Virus genome (UHGV): UHGV-1380027
Origin: a virus
Length of the DNA: 64,000 nt
Direction: 5' to 3' (one strand)
A model generated the notes under the pieces. The model saw only the letters and a program-made list of their open reading frames with translations, was not told the DNA's origin and searched no databases. The position numbers were made by a program, and so were the translations under genes. Positions 2,701-33,649 of this stretch are shown piece by piece (positions within the stretch are counted from its first letter, which is position 1; every line of letters starts with the position of its first letter).

Positions 2701-3240
2701 TCAACACTCTTTGTACTCCACCACGATAATATCTATATCAAAAGTGGCAAGGTTAATAATGTCCTCTACATGTTCCCACTTCAAACCGCCTATGCCGCAC
2801 CCGATCTTAGGGATGTAGAATGGTAAAATCGACCCCTCAAATACTTCATTGACTCGCTCAAATCCTTTCAGTATTGAGAAATATTCAGCATTAGGCCCTG
2901 GGTAGAACTGAGTATACAGATTTATTCCGTAGACAATACCTCTCGGAGATAAGTGCTCCCAGCGGGAGAACGCGCCCAGTTTACTTAGGCAACCGTGCAT
3001 AGTCATTTTATCAGCTTCCAATGCTTGAGGGAACTCACGGGCAATCTGTTTTGCTACACCCTTACCCATTGTGTGGAAGCAGTTACAACCGTGGATCAGG
3101 TGACCAGCACCGCTCTTAAAAAGGGAGATTAAATCTCCCTCTACAGTATCAATAATCACGATATTCCAGCTCCTCTTCCACAATTTCAAAAAACTCAGTC
3201 CAGCACTGTGGCATATTGGAGTTACCGAAGTGGCTTTCAT
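2701..3240 (-). CDS. macro-domain-like protein (ADP-ribose binding/hydrolase fold)
   Basis: motifs HGCNCFHTMGKGVAKQIAREFP, LYTQFYPGP, FYIPKIGCGIGGL and DIDIIVVEY match the order and spacing of macro-domain loops (NAAN..GGGV..AI / HTVGP / AISTGIYG / RIIFCVF); true start may be GTG at 3159 (SD GAGGAG) rather than ATG 3240. Confidence 0.5.
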   Translation of the reverse strand: MKATSVTPICHSAGLSFLKLWKRSWNIVIIDTVEGDLISLFKSGAGHLIHGCNCFHTMGKGVAKQIAREFPQALEADKMTMHGCLSKLGAFSRWEHLSPRGIVYGINLYTQFYPGPNAEYFSILKGFERVNEVFEGSILPFYIPKIGCGIGGLKWEHVEDIINLATFDIDIIVVEYKEC

Positions 3241-3639: not shown

Positions 3640-3837
3640 TTACGCAGGAATTGCTTCAAACAGGCCGTTATCGATACCATCTTTCAAGTAAAGATTATAC
3701 TCTATGTCGGTATCTGTGTAAAGGGCAGCATCCAGCATTCTATCTGTGAGTCCATCCATTGGGTGGAGAAACCACCACCCACGCCAGTCAAAGTAACAAC
3801 CTGGTGCATCTTCTCTCACACGGATTCGATAAATCAT
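3640..3837 (-). CDS. hypothetical small protein (65 aa), possible distant member of the KDDxG-W small-protein family
   Basis: contains WFLHP also present in ORF 8092..8286. Confidence 0.4.
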   Translation of the reverse strand: MIYRIRVREDAPGCYFDWRGWWFLHPMDGLTDRMLDAALYTDTDIEYNLYLKDGIDNGLFEAIPA

Positions 3838-4375: not shown

Positions 4376-4397
4376 GCCCCACCCTTTCGGGTAGGGC
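4376..4397 (-). terminator. rho-independent terminator hairpin (GAAA-loop type)
   Basis: minus-strand RNA GCCCUACCC-GAAA-GGGUGGGGC followed by AUUUUUGUAU; fully paired only in minus-strand transcript (G-U pair). Confidence 0.6.
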
Positions 4398-4412: not shown

Positions 4413-5639
4413 TTAAAAAGGTATGTCATCATCAAAGGCGTACTGTGCCGGATTCTGATCCATCGGGTCGTCTTCCGCATCATCTACAGGAGGAGCGTCT
4501 ACAGTGTTTTGCTGTGGGGCGGCTTCCTGTTTGGCAGCTTGAGGCTCTTGATGGTCAGTGGCTCCAGCACCGTTCTTGATCCAATCATACAACGGTTCAG
4601 CAAGATTAGTCAAGACATCTTTTGCCTCTGCAGTAATTGCTACTGCAAAATCATCAACTTTCGTTTTCTTGTCAATACGGCGACAAGCGTTCAATACCGC
4701 ATTACCAACACTGGCACCTACTTCATCTTCAGTTCGGTTAGTGGCTTGAGCGTACTCTTTCTTAAGCTCGATGGTGACCACGTGCAGTGTTTTAGCCACA
4801 TCTAAAGGGCTGTCAATCTTAAACCCGCGATCCAAGATGATCTGCAATGCATTGATACTGTGCCCTGTCTCTACACCGATGGGGTCGTAAGAGGATTTAC
4901 GCTTACCACCAGAACCTTGTGTACCGTTCTCTGCTTTAGGCGGGTAGGCCTTGAAGCCGCTGATAATATTCCCGGTGTCTTTGTCAACAATAGCTGCAAC
5001 ACGACCGCCAACCACCAGGTCTTTAAGCTGCTCATCGGAGACAACCATAGCACCTTCGCCAATCTTGTGGTCATTGACAGTAACCACGTTACCAACAATC
5101 TGAGTCACATCACCATAGATGCGTAAAACGTCCTGATTGGCATTCTGCTGAGGTTTCTGCTTCTGGCCTTGTGATTGTGTGCCTTGTTGCTGTTTTTGTT
5201 GCTGTGGAGCTGATGGAGCCTCTCCTGCCCCCAACTTAACCATTTTAGCCAGTGAGCCTTTGTAGTAGGTCTTACCGTTATGCTCATTTGCCTTTAAAGG
5301 GATATTTACGATCCATCCTGGCGTTACTGTTTCCCACTTGTCATCAATTTTAACAGAGACGGAGTCTTGATGACCAGGCTTAAGCAGCTTATCACCCATG
5401 CTGATCCAAACTTCTTCACCACCTTGGAGCAGGTTATCAGAGGAGTCCAGTTCAGAAATCAGTAAAGAGATGGTGTGGCTGGATTCAATTTTCTTACCTT
5501 GCCACACAGTGGTTTTAATACCTGTTGTAGGATCAGCACCTTTAATGGGCTTGATGCTGACACGTTTAATCATACCGTGAGCCAGTAAAACAGTTTCACG
5601 CGGATTCATCGGGTTAGCAAATTGTTGGATAACGCTCAT
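4413..5639 (-). CDS. SSB-like protein with host-SSB-type C-terminal tail (408 aa)
   Basis: C-terminus AFDDDIPF identical to bacterial SSB tip; Gln/Gly-rich linker PQQQKQQQGTQSQGQKQKPQQ; adjacent to replication genes. Confidence 0.5.
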   Translation of the reverse strand: MSVIQQFANPMNPRETVLLAHGMIKRVSIKPIKGADPTTGIKTTVWQGKKIESSHTISLLISELDSSDNLLQGGEEVWISMGDKLLKPGHQDSVSVKIDDKWETVTPGWIVNIPLKANEHNGKTYYKGSLAKMVKLGAGEAPSAPQQQKQQQGTQSQGQKQKPQQNANQDVLRIYGDVTQIVGNVVTVNDHKIGEGAMVVSDEQLKDLVVGGRVAAIVDKDTGNIISGFKAYPPKAENGTQGSGGKRKSSYDPIGVETGHSINALQIILDRGFKIDSPLDVAKTLHVVTIELKKEYAQATNRTEDEVGASVGNAVLNACRRIDKKTKVDDFAVAITAEAKDVLTNLAEPLYDWIKNGAGATDHQEPQAAKQEAAPQQNTVDAPPVDDAEDDPMDQNPAQYAFDDDIPF

Positions 5640-6049
5640 TATTTATCTCCTTGTTCTTCGTTAGTGGTTGATGTATGTGCAAACCCTGCTTGAATTAATT
5701 TGTCCTGGACTTGAGCTAACAGGCCCATTGCAAAACTCGTCGTCCCAGAAAGGGCCATTAGCATATCTCGTTGTTGAGCTACCCAACCTAAGGCATAATC
5801 CAAACGACGATATTTCTCTTCTTCTCGCAGAGCCTGGAATAACTGTTCAGCCTCTGGTTGTTGTGTGAGCTCCTGAAGTCTCCCCATGAAAGAAGAAAGT
5901 ACCAGCAGAAGAGACACTTGATCTTTGCTTAACCCTAAGAAAAATTCTTGAGGTTGTTCTTGCTCGTTCATCGCAACCGACGCTTGATCGTTCATTTGTT
6001 CCATTGTGGAATCTCCGATTTTATTTGAACAACATAAAGGAGACACCAT
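5639..6049 (-). CDS. hypothetical protein (136 aa)
   Basis: strong SD AAGGAGA 7 nt upstream of ATG. Confidence 0.55.
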   Translation of the reverse strand: MVSPLCCSNKIGDSTMEQMNDQASVAMNEQEQPQEFFLGLSKDQVSLLLVLSSFMGRLQELTQQPEAEQLFQALREEEKYRRLDYALGWVAQQRDMLMALSGTTSFAMGLLAQVQDKLIQAGFAHTSTTNEEQGDK

Positions 6050-6086
6050 TTTAGCATCTCCTTCTGTAAATTACAACAGCTATTTG

Positions 6087-6332
6087 TTAGCCAATTACTT
6101 CGAAAGTGCCCCAGCTTCCGTTCAGCAGGCAGGTGATCGGATCGCCATCATCGTCAAATATTTCAAAGTTTTCAGCATCCAGAATATGATCATCGAACAC
6201 AATGCTCTTATCTCCACCACCAGAAATAACAGCGTATTCCTTACCTTGTGTTAGGTTCTGGCAACCTTTGCCGCCGAAACCAACTTCAACACAACGTACT
6301 TTCTGTCCTGCGCGAGCAACTACTCCAGCCAT
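6087..6332 (-). CDS. small protein, KDDxG-W family member (81 aa)
   Basis: SD AGGAGA; motif IFDDDGDPITC. Confidence 0.5.
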   Translation of the reverse strand: MAGVVARAGQKVRCVEVGFGGKGCQNLTQGKEYAVISGGGDKSIVFDDHILDAENFEIFDDDGDPITCLLNGSWGTFEVIG

Positions 6333-6349
6333 CTTAAGGTCTCCTGATA

Positions 6350-6652
6350 TTAATCGTCAAGTTCAAAATAGATTTTAACAGCTTCATCAAAGATTGGAAT
6401 CCCGATGTTGTTGATAAGCTGCCAAACTACCATATCTTTTCCTGGATCTGGGAGAATGTCAACCTTTCTCCATGCGCTGTATATCCAGTTCGGACCGCCT
6501 TCTGCACTAACTGGTAGATTTTCACCAGCTTCTTGTAGATACTTATACAGCAAAAGGTATTCTGGGTACTCTAGAACACTGTCCTCTGTAGTATATAGCA
6601 GTTCACGGTATACTTTCAAGAATCCTGTTGGGTTGATGTTTTCAGTCTTCAT
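6350..6652 (-). CDS. hypothetical protein (100 aa; track ORF extends to 6670)
   Basis: internal ATG at 6652 has SD AGGAGA 8 nt upstream, the ATG at 6670 has none. Confidence 0.45.
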   Translation of the reverse strand: MKTENINPTGFLKVYRELLYTTEDSVLEYPEYLLLYKYLQEAGENLPVSAEGGPNWIYSAWRKVDILPDPGKDMVVWQLINNIGIPIFDEAVKIYFELDD

Positions 6653-7046
6653 TTGCTGCTTCTCCTGCATTCATCAGATCTGCCATAGCGTCACCAACGA
6701 AGAGGACAACCACGTCGTTGACAGCGTCAGCATCATCTTTATTGATGTTGCTGAATTTGGGGCACACTGCAATGACCATATAGACCCCGTTGCCCAACTG
6801 AACAGTGCGTGTAGTGCACATCAGTGTGGTGCTTGTGCCTTCTTTAAAGGCAAATCCTTGCAGACGTTCTTCCAGAGAGTCACCTGTTGATTTCAACAAG
6901 GCAAGATCTCCCAGTGCGTAGGTAGTGTCCTCATAGGTCAGTCCAGAGGTCAATGTTGCCTTTCCATCAGAGACTATAATAACTCCATCGGCACCGTCAA
7001 GCTCAGAGGCTTCAAAGATATTAATATCCCAAATGTTTTTCATCAC
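6642..7046 (-). CDS. hypothetical protein (134 aa)
   Basis: co-oriented ORF. Confidence 0.5.
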   Translation of the reverse strand: MMKNIWDINIFEASELDGADGVIIVSDGKATLTSGLTYEDTTYALGDLALLKSTGDSLEERLQGFAFKEGTSTTLMCTTRTVQLGNGVYMVIAVCPKFSNINKDDADAVNDVVVLFVGDAMADLMNAGEAANED

Positions 7047-7375
7047 GCTTCCTCGTCATCTAAGTAATCATCAAGAGAGGTGAAGATTTCACCGAAGTAT
7101 TCTAATACCTCCAGCTCTCTGGTGGTGCAACAAACATAATCTCCCTGGTCATCCTTGATAGTAGCCTCCTTACCTAGCACATCCACTTCAAATTCATCGT
7201 TTAGCAGGACGGCCCCTGTGTAAACTTTATCTGCCGTGCAGTCCCGAAAAGCAGAGTCCTTCTCCAAGTAGTCTGGCTTAACCTTGGCTTTAATTCGTTG
7301 ATATTGTTTGGTCATTGCTGTGGTCCCCTTTCGTTTTGATAGGGCCATTATATTAGGCCCTATCGCTATTGTCAA
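7043..7375 (-). CDS. small protein, KDDxG-W family (110 aa), paralog of 7379..7633
   Basis: shared motifs AF(R/K)DCT and (I/F)KDD(Q/E)GD.V.CT with neighbour. Confidence 0.55.
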   Translation of the reverse strand: MTIAIGPNIMALSKRKGTTAMTKQYQRIKAKVKPDYLEKDSAFRDCTADKVYTGAVLLNDEFEVDVLGKEATIKDDQGDYVCCTTRELEVLEYFGEIFTSLDDYLDDEEA

Positions 7376-7378
7376 GTA

Positions 7379-7633
7379 TTAATGCTCAGGTTTTACAAAA
7401 ACTACTTCGTTAACAGTGCACCAGACAGAATCTCCTTCATCATCTTTAAAGGTAAGACACTGGGCTGAGTTTTCCAACTCATCGAGCTCTTCTTGTGATA
7501 AATAGGTCCCTTCTTCCAGAAGAGCTTTTACCAGAGGGTTCTCACAAAACTCTGCTTCATAAATTGCACCGAGTGTGCAATCTTTAAAAGCTCGGTCATT
7601 TGCAACGCATTCTGGCTTCAAAGTGATTTGCAT
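7379..7633 (-). CDS. small protein, KDDxG-W family (84 aa), paralog of 7043..7375
   Basis: shared motifs with neighbour. Confidence 0.55.
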   Translation of the reverse strand: MQITLKPECVANDRAFKDCTLGAIYEAEFCENPLVKALLEEGTYLSQEELDELENSAQCLTFKDDEGDSVWCTVNEVVFVKPEH

Positions 7634-7709
7634 CTTAGCAGTCTCCTCAATTATTTAAAAATCAAATCTCTGTTTGTGTGAAGTATCTTATATCCAATCT
7701 TACTTCTTG

Positions 7710-8108
7710 TCAATGGCTATTTTCAATCATCCACACAGGGTCGAGGTAAATTTGTTGGCGTTTTGCCCAATGACAAACTTCATTGTACATCTGAATCTCT
7801 TTGTCTGTCAATTCACGAATAGGCTCATCTATACCCTCATTTTTGTGGTAATCCCAGTCGGCATCGATTTCCCACAACCATGACTTACGATCTTCACGCT
7901 TACGCACACAGAAGTCCCCAGGACGGCCTGCCAGTGCATTTAAGAACTCGTTCTCCGCTCGCTCCTGAAGAATACTAAGGAGCAAAACGTTGGAGCATGA
8001 CCGTAAAATATGCTTCAGCTCACAATCATCGATCTCAACTTCAATACGTTGCTTGACTGTGTGGGTACCTTTTACTAACATTCTACCTCCTCTATACAAA
8101 CTCTGCAA
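7710..8108 (-). CDS. hypothetical protein (132 aa)
   Basis: co-oriented ORF. Confidence 0.5.
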   Translation of the reverse strand: MQSLYRGGRMLVKGTHTVKQRIEVEIDDCELKHILRSCSNVLLLSILQERAENEFLNALAGRPGDFCVRKREDRKSWLWEIDADWDYHKNEGIDEPIRELTDKEIQMYNEVCHWAKRQQIYLDPVWMIENSH

Positions 8109-8286
8109 GGGTTGTGTTGTTCACCGCACCGCAGTAGATGGAATATCCCAACCCATTAGGGTGCAGAAACCACGGCACACCTTGGTCATCCTTCACGTAT
8201 ACATCTCCATTTTCCGTGAAGGGCCAATACTCTTCCCCAAGGGTAAAATACCTACTCATACCTTCAGCCAGATACTTTACTTTCAT
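8092..8286 (-). CDS. small protein, KDDxG-W family (64 aa)
   Basis: motif VYVKDDQGVPWFL; paralogous to next two ORFs. Confidence 0.5.
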   Translation of the reverse strand: MKVKYLAEGMSRYFTLGEEYWPFTENGDVYVKDDQGVPWFLHPNGLGYSIYCGAVNNTTLAEFV

Positions 8287-8510
8287 AGATCCTCTTCAAC
8301 AACTGCAAACTTGGCAAGTAGGGTGGTCCCATAGATATGATACTCACCATTTGACAGATGGGAGATATACCAGGAGATACCGTCCTCGTCTTCGATCATA
8401 TTGTTCCTGCGATCCTTATCGTAATAAACCTTGTAGACCTTACCTTCTTCAAAGAATGACAGGTCTGTCATCTTTTCTTCTACAAACGTAGCTTTAACCA
8501 AAGTTGTCAT
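8283..8510 (-). CDS. small protein, KDDxG-W family (75 aa)
   Basis: FFEEGKVYKV and EDEDGISWYI; ATGA-type overlap with neighbours. Confidence 0.5.
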   Translation of the reverse strand: MTTLVKATFVEEKMTDLSFFEEGKVYKVYYDKDRRNNMIEDEDGISWYISHLSNGEYHIYGTTLLAKFAVVEEDL

Positions 8511-8791
8511 TGATCTGTCTCCTTCTTGTTGAGCCGGAACACTGCAATAATAGCATTTCCAAGATGCAGTGTCAAATCATTCCCCAGATACCATAACATT
8601 CCACGGTCATCTTTAATGAAAGGGTAACAATCCGGTGCCTTCCAGACATTATACACTTTGCCGACCTGAAAGAAATCAGGCCCTGTTGGAATTTTAGTAC
8701 CGGGCCACACTTGGGACACCTGAACGCACTCTACCTGCATAATGACAGGGATAGTCATGGAGGTAAATGTTTTTGTTGGTTCTACTACCAT
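8507..8791 (-). CDS. small protein, KDDxG-W family (94 aa)
   Basis: FFQVGKVYNV and IKDDRGMLWYL. Confidence 0.5.
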   Translation of the reverse strand: MVVEPTKTFTSMTIPVIMQVECVQVSQVWPGTKIPTGPDFFQVGKVYNVWKAPDCYPFIKDDRGMLWYLGNDLTLHLGNAIIAVFRLNKKETDQ

Positions 8792-8842: not shown

Positions 8843-11620
8843 TTAGTGACAATCGCCCCAGTTACGACCGCACAAGTATTCACCTGTGATCTGGAACGGA
8901 ACGCCCATCATTTTAGAAGCCTGCCAGAAGCAATGCACCACCATTTCGCCCACAGGGCTCCAGATAAGTTCAAGCTTTCCGTCATCGTTCAAGATAGGAT
9001 CGTATACCGTATTTCCGTCCTTGTCAACCACTTCGTTTCCGTCCTCATCTTTGCGTGCCTTTTTGTACTTATGACCGTCGAACACATGAAGTTTAGCCTC
9101 TTGTTGGGCTTTAAATGTTTCCAGCTCTTCAATTGTGTCGAAGGTGTATACAGTTTTATACTTAGGGGTGTCAGGCACTTGAAGCTGATATTCGTCATGG
9201 TAATAAATAATACGACGAACACCTTCATCATACCATCCACGCTTCACCATTTGGTGGTGCATGAGGATTCCGACCAAGTCGCACAACGATGCACCGCCAT
9301 TTTGCTGATATGCATTAAGCAAAGAGTGTTTAGAGCGGGTCCAAATGGCATGCCCGTCAAAAGAGTAGATAAATTTCTTACCTGTTGCTTCCCAGAATTT
9401 CTCCAGATCCTCTTTGCGCCCCTTAAGACCTGGGTTGGCATCCCAGAGAGCATCAATTACTCTCTGCCCCAGTTCTGGAGAGATATCCAGCATATCTGCA
9501 ACTTTATCTTTTTGTGCCCCATACATAACCCCATACGTGATAGGTTTACCATCGTTACGAGACACCTCTCTACCTGCTACTTTTGTATATGCCTCAGCAT
9601 TGTTTTGGTGCGCGTCCCCGTTACTTACAACATCATAATACAGGCCGTTGTCAAACTCAAATGCACCCCAGGCCCCGATGAGCTGCTCTAAGTTGGACCC
9701 GTCAATACCGATCTCAAAGTATCCAGGAGGAACACCCCACAGACTACGCATCTCTTTACCCATAACCACTTTAGGAGATGGTTTAGGCATGTTTGCACAA
9801 ATACTATGTTTCTGTCTGGAAGTGTTTGTTAATCCAGAACTTTTAGCAGGAAGCTTGTGGTCAATCTTCAAACGTGGATGATTAAGAAGACCAGTATCAA
9901 CCTTATCTTCCTTGATTGGATCAAGGACCGATCTGCGGTTTCGCAATGATAACCACAAAACGATATCTTTAGCCATCTCTCCGTTCAATTTTTCAAGATT
10001 CGGGCACAGGTGTCCAAACGTATCTTTCAGTTGCGGAGAAGTAATAAGCGCTCTGGCTTTTCTACGTATCTTCCCAAACACTTCCTTTTTAATCCTTTCT
10101 GAGTTAGGGAAGCTTCGGAACTTATGCACAGTTGTCTGGAACTTGGCATCAGTTTTGTTCCAGAAGTTGATAATTAGATCACAATACTCTGACTCCAAAA
10201 GCTCGTCCATATATGCATATACTCGTGCATCAACATCTGCATCAGGTAAAGCTTTCTTCTTGCTGTCTTTAGTTACATCTTTAGTTCTCCACATTGTTGG
10301 GAGCCAACCAGCACTGATCAGGTATCGCTTGATGTCGTCCTGATTGCTGATTTTCATAGGTATCTTGCAGTCAGGCATTCGCTTCTGCTGTAGGTCACTT
10401 ATCGCCTGATCCATCAGCTCTTTAGGTAAAGGGTGTGGTGTAGAAGTTCCTTTGATATACCCCCTCAAGAAATCAGCCATCTTATCGGGGTCTTTACAGC
10501 CCATCTCTTCACACCATTTTATCCCCATCTTACTTACATCCCCTGTGGAGGTAAATGCTCGCTTAGGAGGAGCTTTGAACTCTAAAGCACTCATGTCCAC
10601 AGGGTAGCCAAGCTTGTCTTTTAACCATTTCCAACCATTATTGGAGATTGTCCCATCCTGGTTAAACGGCTTTTCAGGGAACTTAGGCCGCTGAGACATT
10701 GATAACTCTTTTAAAGGAAGTTGTGGTTCAACACGATCAGCGATCTCTTTCATCCACGCATCGCAACGGTCACGTAAAGCAATAGCCCCATCTATGTCGA
10801 AATACACCCCCTGTCGAGCCTGCAGCTCCATCAGGAAGTGCTGTAACATGCCTCGGCGTAATGCGTTCTTCCAGGTGATCTTCTTGAAGCCTTTCGGCTT
10901 CTCTTTGGCAGGATCGTACATAAAGTTCTGCATGTCAGATTTGCCGTAGAATACACCTTTTGATTCAGCTACCAACTCCTTCCAGAGCAACTCCTGAATG
11001 ATAACGTCCTCGAACACACGATCCACATACTTCCACAGCGGAAGCTCACGCCAGTCATCGATTTGAACTTTCTGGTTACCAAGGGCATAGCCCCATGCCA
11101 TAAGGCCATGAGGCCCAACAGGCTGCATTTTCTTGGTAACTGGATTGAATACTGCGTCCGGACAACCTTTTGGCAAAGGGCGGTCAGGCCACAAGATTCG
11201 ACTCATCGCTAACGTATCAAACAGATTAACCTGGTGGTCGTTGATAGTTCCCATGCATTTAGGATCACGGAACATATCAAAATGAATACCGGATAATCTT
11301 TCCATCAGCATAAAGTCGTAACTGTAGCAGTTATGGCAGTTCAAAGCCGTAGGTGACCAGTCTGAATTGCCTGTAAGCCAGCCTTCCAACTCTGAAAAAT
11401 CTGCTATGCGAGCCTCAAAATCTGTATAAAGGGTCTTCTTTGCCAGAATGAAGTTCTTAGCTTTCTCCACATCCTCTTCAGAGTAGTGTGTGCGGTCATT
11501 TAGGGGAAGGAACAGCATAAAACGGTTCTTATTCAGCTCTTTAAACAAACCGCAGTGATAATAAAGATCTGGGTCTTCCAGCAAGCCAGAGGCCTCAAAA
11601 TCGAACGACCACATGCTCAT
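8843..11620 (-). CDS. DNA polymerase, family A, with 3'-5' exonuclease domain (925 aa)
   Basis: Exo I FDFEASGL; motif A DGSNLEQLIGAW; motif B SRNDGKPITYGVMYGAQ; motif C IIYYHDEYQLQV; SD AAGGAGA. Confidence 0.85.
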   Translation of the reverse strand: MSMWSFDFEASGLLEDPDLYYHCGLFKELNKNRFMLFLPLNDRTHYSEEDVEKAKNFILAKKTLYTDFEARIADFSELEGWLTGNSDWSPTALNCHNCYSYDFMLMERLSGIHFDMFRDPKCMGTINDHQVNLFDTLAMSRILWPDRPLPKGCPDAVFNPVTKKMQPVGPHGLMAWGYALGNQKVQIDDWRELPLWKYVDRVFEDVIIQELLWKELVAESKGVFYGKSDMQNFMYDPAKEKPKGFKKITWKNALRRGMLQHFLMELQARQGVYFDIDGAIALRDRCDAWMKEIADRVEPQLPLKELSMSQRPKFPEKPFNQDGTISNNGWKWLKDKLGYPVDMSALEFKAPPKRAFTSTGDVSKMGIKWCEEMGCKDPDKMADFLRGYIKGTSTPHPLPKELMDQAISDLQQKRMPDCKIPMKISNQDDIKRYLISAGWLPTMWRTKDVTKDSKKKALPDADVDARVYAYMDELLESEYCDLIINFWNKTDAKFQTTVHKFRSFPNSERIKKEVFGKIRRKARALITSPQLKDTFGHLCPNLEKLNGEMAKDIVLWLSLRNRRSVLDPIKEDKVDTGLLNHPRLKIDHKLPAKSSGLTNTSRQKHSICANMPKPSPKVVMGKEMRSLWGVPPGYFEIGIDGSNLEQLIGAWGAFEFDNGLYYDVVSNGDAHQNNAEAYTKVAGREVSRNDGKPITYGVMYGAQKDKVADMLDISPELGQRVIDALWDANPGLKGRKEDLEKFWEATGKKFIYSFDGHAIWTRSKHSLLNAYQQNGGASLCDLVGILMHHQMVKRGWYDEGVRRIIYYHDEYQLQVPDTPKYKTVYTFDTIEELETFKAQQEAKLHVFDGHKYKKARKDEDGNEVVDKDGNTVYDPILNDDGKLELIWSPVGEMVVHCFWQASKMMGVPFQITGEYLCGRNWGDCH

Positions 11621-11678: not shown

Positions 11679-13757
11679 TTAAAAAGGTGTTTCGTCGTCT
11701 TCAAAACCAGGAACGTGGTTAGAGGACGGATCATCATACTGAAGATCTTCCTGTGTGTCAACAGGGTTAACAGCAGGAGTTATAACCTTATCAGCCACAA
11801 CCTTGCCCACAGGTGTTTCTACAACTGCATGCTCCTGATCCTCAAACATAGCTTGAGGTCTCCAAACAACCTCTCCACCTTCCCCGTCTGTAAACATCTG
11901 CATCTCTTTATCCCAATACCAATTGCTGGCATCGTGGAACTTGCCTGTGTGGGGATCCATAACTAGAGTGTCCGCAATACCTAAGGTTTTTGCTGGGCGG
12001 TTTTTAAGACCTACCAGCCGGACACGCCCACGGGAACGATCCACCATCTCCTCTGCCTCTACCCCGACAACCACCCAGCTAAGTTGCTCCAATCCGGCAC
12101 TACCGCGAAGGTTCTCTTTTCGTACAGGGTACCAGAAAGGTAACGGATTTCCATCCTTATCCTTCGGAGGTACAATCTCTGTGCGCTTCAGGTGAGCAAT
12201 CACCAAGATAAACACATTAAACTGCTTACAGAACGCGGCTAGTTGAGTCATAGCCATGTCAAGCTCTTTACGCTCATCCTTAACATTAAGCCCTGAAATC
12301 ACCATAGACAAGTGATCCAGCACAATGTAACGGCAGTGATACAGGCACACCATTTGTTTAAGCTTAGTGATCAGCTCATCTACAGGGATGGAGCCGAAAT
12401 GCTTGAACACTTTGATTTTTCCGGCCTTGGCCCAAGATTGATGAATCTCAGCGTGCTCCTGATCGGTCAGGAACTGACTGGGGTCTTCAACAAACTCTTT
12501 AACATCAACCCCCAGCTGGTTAGCGTACAGAGAGTTGATTGCTTCCTCAGGATCCTCTTCAAGGTGAATCAGGCACAGGCGATCATCCTCTTCATAATCA
12601 TCAGCTTTAGGGCATGTTGGGTCCATCAAGTATCTTGCAATGCAATGTTCCAGCTTCTTGGCTACAGTTGTTTTACCACCGCCAGACGGGCCTGTCAGCA
12701 TCATCAAGGTGCCTTTGTGGAGTCCTTTCAGCATCTTCTGCAGTTTAGGGAACTCTGCACTAATATCCACGCCATTGGAAGTCTTCTTACGAAGAGATTC
12801 AATGGAGAAGTCTTCTAAATCAGATACAGCATCAGGCACATATTTGACTGGGTGACGGAACATGTTGACAATATCTTCCAGCTTTTTAGCCTTCAGCATG
12901 TCACGAATATCTTTTACACCATCAGGGTCGTTTACCTCACCTGGGTATTCCACGTGGTAAACGTTGTCAGCCATCAAAAATGCTGCGATATTATGCGTAG
13001 CTTCAACACCTTTGATAACGTGTTTTTGCTTCTCTACCTCGTTAGCTGCATCGTTGTCCATTGCAAGGACTACTGTTCCGTAGCTACGGATAAATTTCTC
13101 ATTGTTCGCAAAAGTGTCTACGGCGTTTGCACACCCGCAGTTAATTCCGACAAAAGGCAGGCATGGTTTTCCTGCCAGATCACCGCCGTTGATAACTGCA
13201 TCAATCCCATCCTGGACTTCTTTAGCCCACTGCTTCACCTTCGCCGGGGCTTTAGTATTGGTGAGAATTCCTTTTACTTGTACCTGATATGCAGCCTGCC
13301 ACGCTGCAATAACATCTCCTTCCCCCTCACAAACGTTAATCTGCTTGCGGTTGTTGGAGGATGCACACAGCTTTTGACCAAACATCTGGGAGTTGGCCTT
13401 TACTATGCCAACAACCGAGAAATGGCCCCTTTGCTCTTTAGGGATTGTCCAGTCCCGCTTTTTAAAGCCAGATAGATTACCGTAGCGGTCATAATACGGA
13501 AAGTAGGTGGCAGTAACAGTTACACCATCCTCTTGGGATAGCGATGATCGTACACCAAAATATTGTGCAGCCATCAGTCCAATATTTTGTTGTGGAACAG
13601 GGACAATTTTAGTATTTTCTAAAACAGTCTCTACAGTTTCAACTTCTTTTTCATCACGATAGTCTCGTTTCACACTTCCCCCACTTTTATACTTAGTTGC
13701 TTTCGGGTTTTGCTCACCGAAACGGTTGTATGCAGATGCCATGAATTTACTGCCCAT
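11679..13757 (-). CDS. primase-helicase fusion (TOPRIM domain + DnaB-like helicase), T7 gp4-like organisation (692 aa)
   Basis: TOPRIM motifs NVCEGEGD and LAMDNDAANE; Walker A LTGPSGGGKTT; Walker B IVLDHL; acidic C-terminus FEDDETPF; SD AAGGAGA. Confidence 0.8.
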   Translation of the reverse strand: MGSKFMASAYNRFGEQNPKATKYKSGGSVKRDYRDEKEVETVETVLENTKIVPVPQQNIGLMAAQYFGVRSSLSQEDGVTVTATYFPYYDRYGNLSGFKKRDWTIPKEQRGHFSVVGIVKANSQMFGQKLCASSNNRKQINVCEGEGDVIAAWQAAYQVQVKGILTNTKAPAKVKQWAKEVQDGIDAVINGGDLAGKPCLPFVGINCGCANAVDTFANNEKFIRSYGTVVLAMDNDAANEVEKQKHVIKGVEATHNIAAFLMADNVYHVEYPGEVNDPDGVKDIRDMLKAKKLEDIVNMFRHPVKYVPDAVSDLEDFSIESLRKKTSNGVDISAEFPKLQKMLKGLHKGTLMMLTGPSGGGKTTVAKKLEHCIARYLMDPTCPKADDYEEDDRLCLIHLEEDPEEAINSLYANQLGVDVKEFVEDPSQFLTDQEHAEIHQSWAKAGKIKVFKHFGSIPVDELITKLKQMVCLYHCRYIVLDHLSMVISGLNVKDERKELDMAMTQLAAFCKQFNVFILVIAHLKRTEIVPPKDKDGNPLPFWYPVRKENLRGSAGLEQLSWVVVGVEAEEMVDRSRGRVRLVGLKNRPAKTLGIADTLVMDPHTGKFHDASNWYWDKEMQMFTDGEGGEVVWRPQAMFEDQEHAVVETPVGKVVADKVITPAVNPVDTQEDLQYDDPSSNHVPGFEDDETPF

Positions 13758-14511
13758 TAATTCTTCTCCTTACTGCAGGCTCGTTTGCTAAGAATACAGC
13801 TCTTGCCCAGCCACGTGGTGTAAGGCTTCGAATCATCTTCGTCCTTGCACTCTTTCCACCTAGCTTAGCGTGTTGCATGGAATAACCACTAACCACATCA
13901 ACTATTTGCGGGACAGGTTTTGTGGCGGGGATTATAAATCCATTGCCTATCCAACCGCAAGTTATTTTTGGGTAGGCATCACGTGGAGCTATAAATTCAG
14001 GAAACCATGGGTTTACATCGTCCTCTGGTAGATACCCACCATAATCCGAAGGATGAAAACGGTAATCAGGTTTTCGCCACAGTGTTGACATAACTCCTAC
14101 AGGGTTCTCTACATGCCACGGGCAATCATAAATCTCTCCCAACTCTTCTGCAACCCGAGCATCTTTCACAGCATTAATTTGGATCAGTGGGTCCTTAGCC
14201 AGCTTTTTCTTAAAGTGTGCAGCTCCGGATACTGCTAAATGCGTGCACGGAGGAAATGCAAGAATAAAGTCTGGAGCTGGATACATGCAAAAAGTTTCTT
14301 GAGGGAACCATGGATCAATCCAATAATCCACATAGTGAATGTTAGGATGATCGGTTATCACCTCTGCATAACTACCGTGGTCAGCACCTTCTGCATTAAA
14401 GCACAGGCACAGGTACCCAGCTTTTGCCCAGTCAATAACTGCACCACCAGACCCGTCAAATAGACTCCACACGACACCTTTGTGGTAGTGTTCTTTGTAG
14501 ATAAATTTCAA
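13747..14511 (-). CDS. DNA (cytosine-5)-methyltransferase-like protein, short (~254 aa)
   Basis: motif I FDGSGG, motif IV PPCT, motif VI ENPVG; start moved from track GTG (14541, inside terminator hairpin) to TTG at 14511 with SD AGGAGA; 3' end overlaps primase-helicase start by 11 nt. Confidence 0.5.
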   Translation of the reverse strand: MKFIYKEHYHKGVVWSLFDGSGGAVIDWAKAGYLCLCFNAEGADHGSYAEVITDHPNIHYVDYWIDPWFPQETFCMYPAPDFILAFPPCTHLAVSGAAHFKKKLAKDPLIQINAVKDARVAEELGEIYDCPWHVENPVGVMSTLWRKPDYRFHPSDYGGYLPEDDVNPWFPEFIAPRDAYPKITCGWIGNGFIIPATKPVPQIVDVVSGYSMQHAKLGGKSARTKMIRSLTPRGWARAVFLANEPAVRRRINGQ

Positions 14512-14534
14512 TTTGCTGTCTCCTAATGCAAAAA

Positions 14535-14556
14535 GCCCCACCCTTTCGGGCAGGGC
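14535..14556 (-). terminator. rho-independent terminator hairpin (GAAA-loop type)
   Basis: minus-strand RNA GCCCUGCCC-GAAA-GGGUGGGGC then CUUUUUGCAUU; paired with two G-U wobbles only on minus strand. Confidence 0.6.
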
Positions 14557-14562
14557 ATAGTG

Positions 14563-15045
14563 TTAAACCCGGATACCTATTGTATACTCGGTGGATACCA
14601 ATGTCAAATCTAAATTTAAAATTTCTTGCATCTCATAGTATGCGTCCAGGGTGAGATACATTTCACCATCCTTTTCTACATACTTGTCAAGGTGTTTGAG
14701 GCACTTTGGATAGCTATCAAGGGCAGCCTTTAGGCACTCAAACTCCGTGCTGTTGATGAATCCTTCCATCTTGGCTACCCGTTCCGGAGTAACGATAGCA
14801 CTGTAGTGAGATTTAGCTTCCTGAATGCAATGGGTCCAAGCATCAACTTTCTCTTCGAAAAGTCCGAAGAACTTCTTCTTGGTGAGCTTCAGATTCTTTA
14901 AGTGCTTAAGAACTCGGTTGCCGATTACAGACACATCACGAAACTTAAGGATCACTTTGTCAATATCCTCGCGGCCTATTTTCACAAAACAAGCCTCACA
15001 CATTTCAGGAGAGGCATAACCTACCTTCCACATAAAATCTGACAT
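14563..15045 (-). CDS. hypothetical protein (160 aa)
   Basis: co-oriented ORF followed by terminator. Confidence 0.5.
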   Translation of the reverse strand: MSDFMWKVGYASPEMCEACFVKIGREDIDKVILKFRDVSVIGNRVLKHLKNLKLTKKKFFGLFEEKVDAWTHCIQEAKSHYSAIVTPERVAKMEGFINSTEFECLKAALDSYPKCLKHLDKYVEKDGEMYLTLDAYYEMQEILNLDLTLVSTEYTIGIRV

Positions 15046-33241: not shown

Positions 33242-33649
33242 ATGGATAATCTTGCAAGTGTGAACGTCGAAATTGTTAAACTAAAGTTCTTGGGCTTTCG
33301 AGACCCTAATTCTCTAACAGCTATACTGATGGATACCCACTTCACACCTGGGAAAGAGTACACTGCCTTCCGTTATATTTGTGGAGATCACGAATCGGCC
33401 TATAGTGTGAATACAAACCTCGGCGAGGGGTATTTCATCAAAGATATCACAGATCACTTGTGGGGTATGTGGGAATTGGTGGAAGAAGAGAATAAATCCC
33501 TTCCCAAAGAGATTTGGGTGCACACCTTCCACACAGGTAAGTTCGGAGGTACGGAACATAAGTCTATCCACTATGAAGAAGAAAGTGCCATCAAACAACA
33601 AGCTGTGCTTGGTGGATCTGTAGAAAAATTTGTTAAATGCGAGGACTGA
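33242..33649 (+). CDS. hypothetical protein (135 aa)
   Basis: SD GAGGAG 6 nt upstream of ATG. Confidence 0.55.
   Translation: MDNLASVNVEIVKLKFLGFRDPNSLTAILMDTHFTPGKEYTAFRYICGDHESAYSVNTNLGEGYFIKDITDHLWGMWELVEEENKSLPKEIWVHTFHTGKFGGTEHKSIHYEEESAIKQQAVLGGSVEKFVKCED

Follow-up and report, generated by a model that had tools for sequence, protein, structure and literature searches.

The gene array behind the DNA polymerase

Virus genome UHGV-1380027 was examined over a window of 64,000 nucleotides. An initial annotation, made from the sequence alone, had described between positions 6,087 and 8,791 an expanded family of at least six small early proteins with a common KDDxG-(W/C) core, and had named a further open reading frame (ORF) as a possible distant member. 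We label these seven ORFs A to G and give x-names to the genes interspersed among them; all lie on the minus strand, and the seven ORFs and the peptides quoted for them were all recovered where they had been placed. Profile comparison puts A, D, E and F demonstrably in one sequence superfamily, with B and C as probable, highly diverged members, and structure prediction relates D, E and F to Gp54 of Escherichia phage Bas11, a protein that directly triggers an immune sensor. Escherichia phages ECP2303 and ECP26 match the region at 97% identity and FV3 and rV5 isolates at 91–95%, so the window comes from a Vequintavirus (rV5/FV3-like) coliphage. At least 80% of the region is covered by 115 of the 118 matching phage records, and throughout these 118 related genomes the array genes are annotated as hypothetical.

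In the direction of transcription, the order begins with a primase-helicase gene (11679..13757) and the gene for a family-A DNA polymerase of 925 amino acids (aa; 8843..11620), which directly precedes F (8507..8791; 94 aa). F, the first gene after the polymerase, has an N-terminal extension and the core IKDDRGMLWY, and a ribosome-binding site, GAGAGGAG, stands before its ATG. It is followed by E (8283..8510; 75 aa, IEDEDGISWY), one of the proteins modelled, and D (8092..8286; 64 aa, VKDDQGVPWF), which aligns over its full length with E and F; the three form the D/E/F type. Next come x7710 (7710..8081; 123 aa, phrog_6273), which is kept across the Vequintavirinae and is unrelated to the family, and the two genes of the B/C type. 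These are C (7379..7633; 84 aa, FKDDEGDSVWC), for which an SH3-like fold with a helix inserted between β2 and β3 is predicted, and B (7043..7315; 90 aa with its corrected start, IKDDQGDYVCC), which has an acidic C-terminal tail. Beyond them lie x6642 (6642..7043; 133 aa, phrog_8284), which holds the peptide FAFKEGTSTTLMCTTR, resembling the B/C hairpin, then x6350 (6350..6652; 100 aa, matching Pfam DUF7238 at E = 3.8e-7 and unrelated to the family), and finally A (6087..6332; 81 aa, GQKVRCVEV...LTQGKEYAV...IFDDDGDPITC), which has an extra hairpin insert.

The start given for B in the initial annotation (ORF 7043..7375) proved to be wrong. The proposed TTG codon at 7375 is the beginning of the −35 box (TTGACA, 7375..7370) of a perfect sigma-70 promoter, TTGACA-17-TATAAT (7347..7375, 12/12 consensus), which lies between C and B and would drive B and the genes downstream. 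B instead begins at the ATG at 7315, with a ribosome-binding site ahead of it, and the resulting 90-aa form (MTKQYQ...) is dominant in the databases (P0052, 282 member sequences). Two other promoter-like sites, known from the consensus scan only and matching at 10–11 of 12 positions, precede C (TTGACA-17-TAAGAT, 7685..7713, 10/12, in a 76-nucleotide gap) and the polymerase gene (11761..11733). As consensus matches, these sites fit transcription by host RNA polymerase and hence the description of the genes as early. The genes had also been described as translationally coupled; this applies to F/E and E/D, which have ATGA overlaps, and to B/x6642 (TGATG), but not to C and B, each of which has its own promoter-like site and intergenic gap. 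Nothing useful was found in the literature on early transcription in rV5, on DUF6501 or on CapRel with Vequintavirinae.

A, D, E and F form one superfamily

Translated in all six frames, the 64 kb contain the motif [ILVFM][KE]D[DE]xG exactly five times; B, C, D, E and F have one apiece, and none lies outside 7043..8791 (minus strand). Composition-preserving shuffles (n=300) gave a mean of 0.28 and a maximum of 3 occurrences, and five or more clustered occurrences in 0/300, so the clustering is not due to chance. A has a looser variant, IFDDDG, and the two pair motifs noted before, AFRDCT/AFKDCT and FFEEGKVYKV/FFQVGKVYNV, were confirmed. Sialidases, a BNR protein and other β-repeat proteins also turn up as weak matches to a profile of D, E and F across the DxGxxW segment. 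The motif core is a generic, Asp-box-like β-hairpin turn that is present in unrelated proteins as well, and is therefore no proof of homology by itself; at the level of sequence, homology is established by matches over the whole module.

Pairwise comparison does not go far with these proteins: by blastp only B–C (4.6e-9), E–F (2.7e-5) and D–F (0.003) stand out, and each ORF falls in a separate PHROG with few cross-hits. Since word-indexed searches gave only close Vequintavirus relatives, diverged orthologues and an exhaustive search were needed to reach distant ones. Among six IMG/VR loci anchored on the polymerase is a lineage, L003–L006, that supplied diverged orthologues; its polymerase is ~73% identical and its gene order is the same. 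With these included, E and F merge (hhalign E = 1e-32), D joins them weakly (7.5e-4), B and C merge into one hidden Markov model (HMM) family, and A and G stay separate.

The exhaustive HMMER search used a 39-sequence D/E/F alignment against 1.84 billion representative proteins. It returned distant relatives of two kinds, small single-domain proteins and longer proteins with 2–9 tandem modules of ~60 aa, with the module consensus GxxVxCV...FTxGKxYxV...hhhxDDxGxxW...FEhVEE. A set of long multi-stretch hits (P0152, P0158, P0162, P0167 and P0168) was discarded as false positives, these being BNR, SdrD-B, chitobiase or low-complexity proteins. We then built a distant-only profile from 72 domain copies of non-Vequintavirus proteins, with no window family included. 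Against this profile hhalign gave 3.4e-8 (95%) for A, 8.4e-10 (97%) for D, 2.1e-11 for E and 1.6e-7 (94%) for F, the probabilities spanning 93.9–97.3%, while four neighbouring unrelated families used as controls, G among them, scored 0.4–0.8. A, which lay outside the seed, is matched at 6.6e-9 by the broad HMM and at 1.5e-10 by the distant-only one, and the distant protein P0156 matches the PHROGs of both A (phrog_4927) and E (phrog_12623). On the strength of the distant-only matches and the P0156 bridge, A, D, E and F demonstrably belong to one superfamily by sequence.

B and C are firmly a paralogue pair by sequence, and their relation to the other four is more distant. Their first score against the distant-only profile was 1.1e-3, and with orthologues from the L018 contig added it became 1.5e-4 (52%) over 57 columns, compared with 0.05–0.5 for the controls. 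The register is correct, AFRDCTxGKVY lying on FTxGKxYxV and IKDDQGD on IxDDxG, and we regard B and C as probable, highly diverged members of the superfamily. In L003 the C and B orthologues are separated by an extra 136-aa gene (14294..14704, plus strand) of phrog_14592, a group annotated as ‘virion structural protein’, and the N-terminal part of its product resembles the superfamily.

Other candidates fared less well. G (3640..3837), with its WFLHP peptide, had been put forward as a possible distant member, and no profile similarity was found beyond that pentapeptide: hhalign gave 0.47–0.71 against the A, B, E, F and broad profiles and 0.045 against D, within the control range, and G is missing from the hit lists of the broad and distant-only HMMs. 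The proposed family of six or more stands for A, D, E and F and probably for the B/C pair, and loses G. We also considered x6642 as a degenerate member, prompted by its hairpin-like peptide and by the fusion form P0058, and found no support for it (hhalign 0.05–0.45; blastp to C 0.014, in a very small database). Nor is x7710 a member, at 0.06–0.8 against the family profiles. Elsewhere in the window, residues 12–81 of a 135-aa two-domain protein (33242..33649, plus strand; phrog_15992) may be a distant member, on weak evidence. Its N-terminal domain (phrog_30425) scores 1.3e-3 with the distant-only HMM and 3.6e-3 with the broad HMM in a 1917-ORF database, and HFTPGKEYTAF...WELVEEE aligns to the consensus, without the DDxG turn.

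Predicted fold and the link to Gp54

The predicted structure of E is a six-stranded small barrel with a prominent β1–β2 loop, and it can be superposed on PDB entry 9axb, that of Gp54. C is predicted as a five-stranded SH3 barrel with a helical insert. In both models the KDDxG segment forms the tight turn of the β3–β4 (‘distal’) hairpin. The predicted folds of E and C are related. By prediction, D, E and F would share a six-stranded barrel of the type seen in Gp54, with A in the same sequence superfamily, and B and C would have diverged further, to a five-stranded SH3 form into which a helix is inserted.

Gp54 is a 66-aa, non-essential protein of phage Bas11, of unknown function (PDB 9axb / 9erv; PMC11578894). 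It binds the pseudo-zinc-finger domain of CapRel-SJ46 with a Kd of 800 nM, partly unfolding in the process, and the toxin is activated; its contacts are made by the β1–β2 loop and by a Gly/Ile at the start of β2, and the escape mutants are G24D and W43* (PMC11578894). Close homologues from SECphi27, Bas5, Bas8 and Bas10 do not trigger CapRel-SJ46 (PMC11578894), so triggering is not a family-wide property. Four positions of E that are invariant in the family, F20, G23, W47 and G61, line up with F21, G24, W43 and G57 of Gp54. A sequence search of the PDB with the D/E/F profile did not find 9axb and returned only spurious matches to fatty-acid-binding proteins and sialidase hairpins.

Zhang et al. 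(Nature 2024, PMC11578894) called the barrel topology of Gp54 very rare. In a Foldseek comparison with BFVD, however small and uncharacterised the proteins, many from enterobacterial phages show the E-type fold; a genome often encodes several of them, NBD2 having three, and one was seen in Cronobacter phage CR9. Bas11 gp48 (L012 12579..12944, minus strand; 121 aa, phrog_2684) matches the D/E/F profile at 1.7e-4 through FKAGKRYQI...YVFDEDGDRF, so Bas11 has a motif-bearing superfamily member besides Gp54.

Selection, copy number and recombination

Against six Vequintavirus genomes the ratio of non-synonymous to synonymous substitution rates (dN/dS) was 0.004 for F (dS 0.54), 0.05 for B, 0.06 for A, 0.09 for D, 0.14 for C and 0.22 for E. 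The array genes are real, and their products are constrained by purifying selection. Positive or diversifying selection was considered and rejected, all values being at or below 0.22. The family had been called diversified, which holds between the old paralogues but not within the genus (dN/dS 0.00–0.22), where the strength of purifying selection gives no sign of an ongoing arms race. Neighbouring genes differ several-fold in dS, as do genomes, a sign of mosaic recombination.

Lineages carry different numbers of D/E/F-type genes: three in the window, two in L003–L006, four in L019 and seven in L018. In the last of these (Logan ERR6997038, a 125.8-kb contig; 6001..8424), an F-like gene is followed by an inserted Ead/Ea22-like gene, a 63-aa gene and then six consecutive D/E/F-type genes before the x7710 slot, and another unrelated gene, of 90 aa, separates x7710 from the C-like gene. 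At the syntenic locus of Seu621, CR3, Av-05 and A73, phmmer and iterated HMMs detected no homologues of A to F. Other Vequintavirinae genera keep the polymerase, the primase, x7710 and x6350, with x7710 orthologues in Av-05 and Seu621.

The databases also hold fusion, deletion and internal-duplication forms of these genes (P0058, P0131, P0134, P0137 and P0028/P0030). In P0058 the N-terminus of B is joined to the C-terminus of x6642 at a common CTTR; other recombinants combine the N-terminus of one paralogue with the C-terminus of another, and there are internal deletions and many frameshifted C variants. One database form of F has an 11-aa tandem duplication, KAPDCHPFIKE|KAPNCYPFIKDD, and x6642 is broken into two ORFs in phage V18. 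A further entry among the recombinant or damaged forms is L015 1344..1732. Some of these forms may be assembly errors.

Neighbouring genes

The next gene after A in the direction of transcription is x5639, and just upstream of it a 13-bp stem-loop, GAAGGAGATGCTA-AAA-TGGTGTCTCCTTT (6036..6064, minus strand), spans a Shine-Dalgarno-like GGAG and an ATG. The scan labelled it terminator-like; alternatively, it could occlude translation initiation. After x5639 comes a 408-aa SSB-like protein (4413..5639) with a Q-rich centre and no Pfam match. Its C-terminus reads ...AFDDDIPF, identical to the tip of the E. coli SSB C-terminal tail, and the protein may be an SSB of the phage, or may mimic one and so recruit host proteins that interact with SSB. 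The gene is followed by a strong terminator-like hairpin (4397..4376). G is among the further small genes beyond it, and a 179-aa macro-domain protein (2701..3240; Pfam Macro, 2e-7) lies downstream in the same transcription direction.

The polymerase gene is intact in the window. HNH or homing-endonuclease insertions have split or lengthened it in many relatives, among them Av-05, A73, SophiaRose, IMG/VR loci and L018/L019 (loci compared: L002–L006, L009, L010, L018 and L019). The region and the polymerase are also 90–99% identical to 16–17 unannotated ‘Campylobacter phage’ records (MG065644, MG065655, MG065672 and others; host C. jejuni), which are probably mislabelled or contaminant genomes.

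Possible function of the array

The isoelectric points of A to E are 4.1–4.6 (net charge −4 to −13) and that of F is 6.5, near neutral. The sequences of A to F contain no signal peptides, membrane segments or enzyme motifs. The array encodes standalone, acidic proteins of ~60–90 aa, predicted to be SH3-like β-barrels, that arose by old tandem duplication, and on balance we read them as small, host-directed, protein-binding accessory factors. In the shared module β1 (VxCV / VKAxF) is followed by a long loop, β2 (FTxGKxYxV), β3, the tight DDxG turn and β4 (xxW), after which one or two more strands (GxWxVxG...AxF) close it; the conserved F, G, Y, DDxG, W, G and AxF would build the core and the turns, and the variable β1–β2, β2–β3 and β4–β5 loops would carry partner specificity, so that each paralogue would bind a different protein. 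Host RNA polymerase would transcribe the array from the sigma-70 promoters early in infection, and the products would bind host proteins for takeover or counter-defence. By analogy with Gp54, they are candidate triggers of CapRel-type immune sensors. The sigma-70 promoters, the small size, the variable copy number and a Gp54 that is both non-essential and recognised by a sensor all fit accessory binders. The acidity of A to E, the recombinant and deleted database forms and the multiple copies of the fold in many phages are in keeping with this too. The statement in the initial annotation that no function can be read from the sequence is still apt for biochemical function, but the structure gives a handle, since Gp54 (9axb) is a direct trigger of CapRel-SJ46.

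Several observations weigh against this reading. Homology of B and C to A, D, E and F is probable rather than proven, of the five models of C only two are confident, and unrelated folds also contain the DxGxxW hairpin. The link to Gp54 rests on predicted structure; by hhalign Gp54 scores 1.8e-3 with the E family (62 columns) and 9.5e-3 with the D/E/F profile, both sub-significant, and 0.3–0.4 with the broad profile. The role in host takeover or anti-defence, which we favour, is an inference. Finally, the purifying selection, on F especially, is unlike that expected of an arms-race gene, and a conserved phage or host partner would fit equally well.

The main rival to host-directed binders is that the proteins are adaptor subunits within the phage's own machinery of replication or nucleotide metabolism, such as tethers that attach enzymes to the replisome. 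We judge this rather unlikely, though it has the position of the array behind it, between the family-A DNA polymerase and the SSB-like protein in a rIIA/rIIB-helicase-primase-polymerase module of conserved order. The same domain is elsewhere fused to DUF3310 / ‘nucleotide kinase’ (T7 gp1.7-like) and to dGTP_diPhyd_N (P0156, P0144), and very strong purifying selection (F ~0.004) would suit such a role. Yet Seu621, CR3, Av-05 and A73 keep the polymerase, the primase and x7710 with no detectable A–F homologues at the locus, copy number ranges from 2 to 7 among close lineages, and Gp54 is non-essential in Bas11; patchy presence, variable copy number and non-essentiality point to accessory rather than core genes. 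It is quite improbable that the barrels resemble Sso7d, KOW or integrase C-terminal domains in binding nucleic acid, here the DNA or RNA of the phage in the replication module: the acidic character of A to E argues against it, F is near neutral, no basic patch is evident from the sequences, and the partner of Gp54 is a protein. We give even less credence to their being cell-wall-binding SH3 modules of the lysis system, as has been proposed for Drexlerviridae DUF7244 proteins. DUF7244 is reported in the SH3 clan and beside lysis cassettes (PMC13164509), A matches it weakly (0.044) and several distant relatives match it below cut-off, but the array proteins have neither signal peptides nor membrane segments, their genes sit in the replication module behind sigma-70 promoters and far from the lysis genes, and the Pfam scores of the window proteins are under the gathering threshold.

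A different kind of objection is that A/D/E/F and B/C are two unrelated families which share only a convergent, Asp-box-like hairpin turn. Direct hhalign of D/E/F with B/C gives 0.048–0.1, the level of the controls, and covers only the 19-residue motif; the hairpin signature also attracts BNR/sialidase, SdrD-B and chitobiase repeats, and 9axb is not among the 60 best structural matches of the C model. Against this, the B/C match to the distant-only profile takes in the FTxGKxY strand and not the turn alone, A links to both groups (1e-3 and 3e-3), and in the E and C models the motif occupies the β3–β4 hairpin of an SH3-type barrel, encoded by neighbouring genes in one conserved array. We therefore put separate origins at a low probability and keep B and C as probable members.

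New here are the structural link between D/E/F and Gp54, the joining of A, D, E and F in one superfamily, probably together with B/C, the evidence that the barrel occurs commonly in phages, and the corrected start of B. The array consists of members of an already known, functionally uncharacterised kind, and the practical gain is modest, being better annotation and one gene start, with no new mechanism demonstrated. The link of D, E and F to Gp54 through predicted structure, and of A through the sequence superfamily, nevertheless gives these genes a first experimental anchor, since among the relatives Gp54 alone has both a crystal structure and a known interaction. The link further suggests that accessory proteins of phages commonly have this supposedly very rare fold, in arrays as well as in repeat proteins. 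More speculatively, and with little confidence, the Gp54-type barrel could be a widespread phage scaffold for binding immune or housekeeping proteins of the host, deployed as single genes, arrays (2–7 copies in Vequintavirus lineages) and poly-repeat proteins. Each paralogue of the array would then neutralise or decoy a different host sensor, and bacterial sensors such as CapRel would have evolved to detect the conserved F-x-x-G edge on β2. Two questions become testable, namely what the scaffold normally does for the phage and whether CapRel-like sensors recognise it in general.

Comparison with known systems

The D-x-G-x-x-W turn of D, E and F is like the Asp-box (SxDxGxTW) of BNR/sialidase propellers. 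The likeness extends over ~10 residues only and the surrounding folds, a β-propeller and a small barrel, are unrelated, so the resemblance is a warning of convergence and not a relationship. Classical SH3 or SH3-like small barrels are also among the closest known systems, for example the p67phox SH3, the HERC2 Mib-Herc2 domain, the retroviral integrase C-terminal domain and B. subtilis YorP (2heq).

The nearest curated families by sequence are DUF6501 and DUF7244, which have the same module, with its GKxY strand and DDxG hairpin. None of A to F reaches either threshold: Pfam gave nothing above threshold for A to G, A scoring 14.3 bits with DUF7244 against a cut-off of 27, and B to F had no match with an E-value of 1 or less. 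The connection is a transitive one, by way of P0145 (41.4 bits), P0165 (34.1) and P0149 (26.5), which exceed the DUF6501 (PF20111) gathering score of 23.8; the sub-threshold matches of several distant relatives are to PF23896 (DUF7244). As both families are of unknown function, they add no functional information; DUF7244 includes standalone SH3 proteins of Drexlerviridae (PMC13164509).

By structure, the nearest relative is Gp54 of Bas11. Gp54 (phrog_7421) differs from the array in being only 14% identical, in having YHSG in place of KDDxG and in coming from a siphovirus (Drexlerviridae), where it is a single gene rather than one of an array. Like the barrels predicted for D, E and F, it is a standalone six-stranded β-barrel (64–75 aa) with a long β1–β2 loop, and like the array it is small and acidic and is encoded amid other small genes of unknown function.

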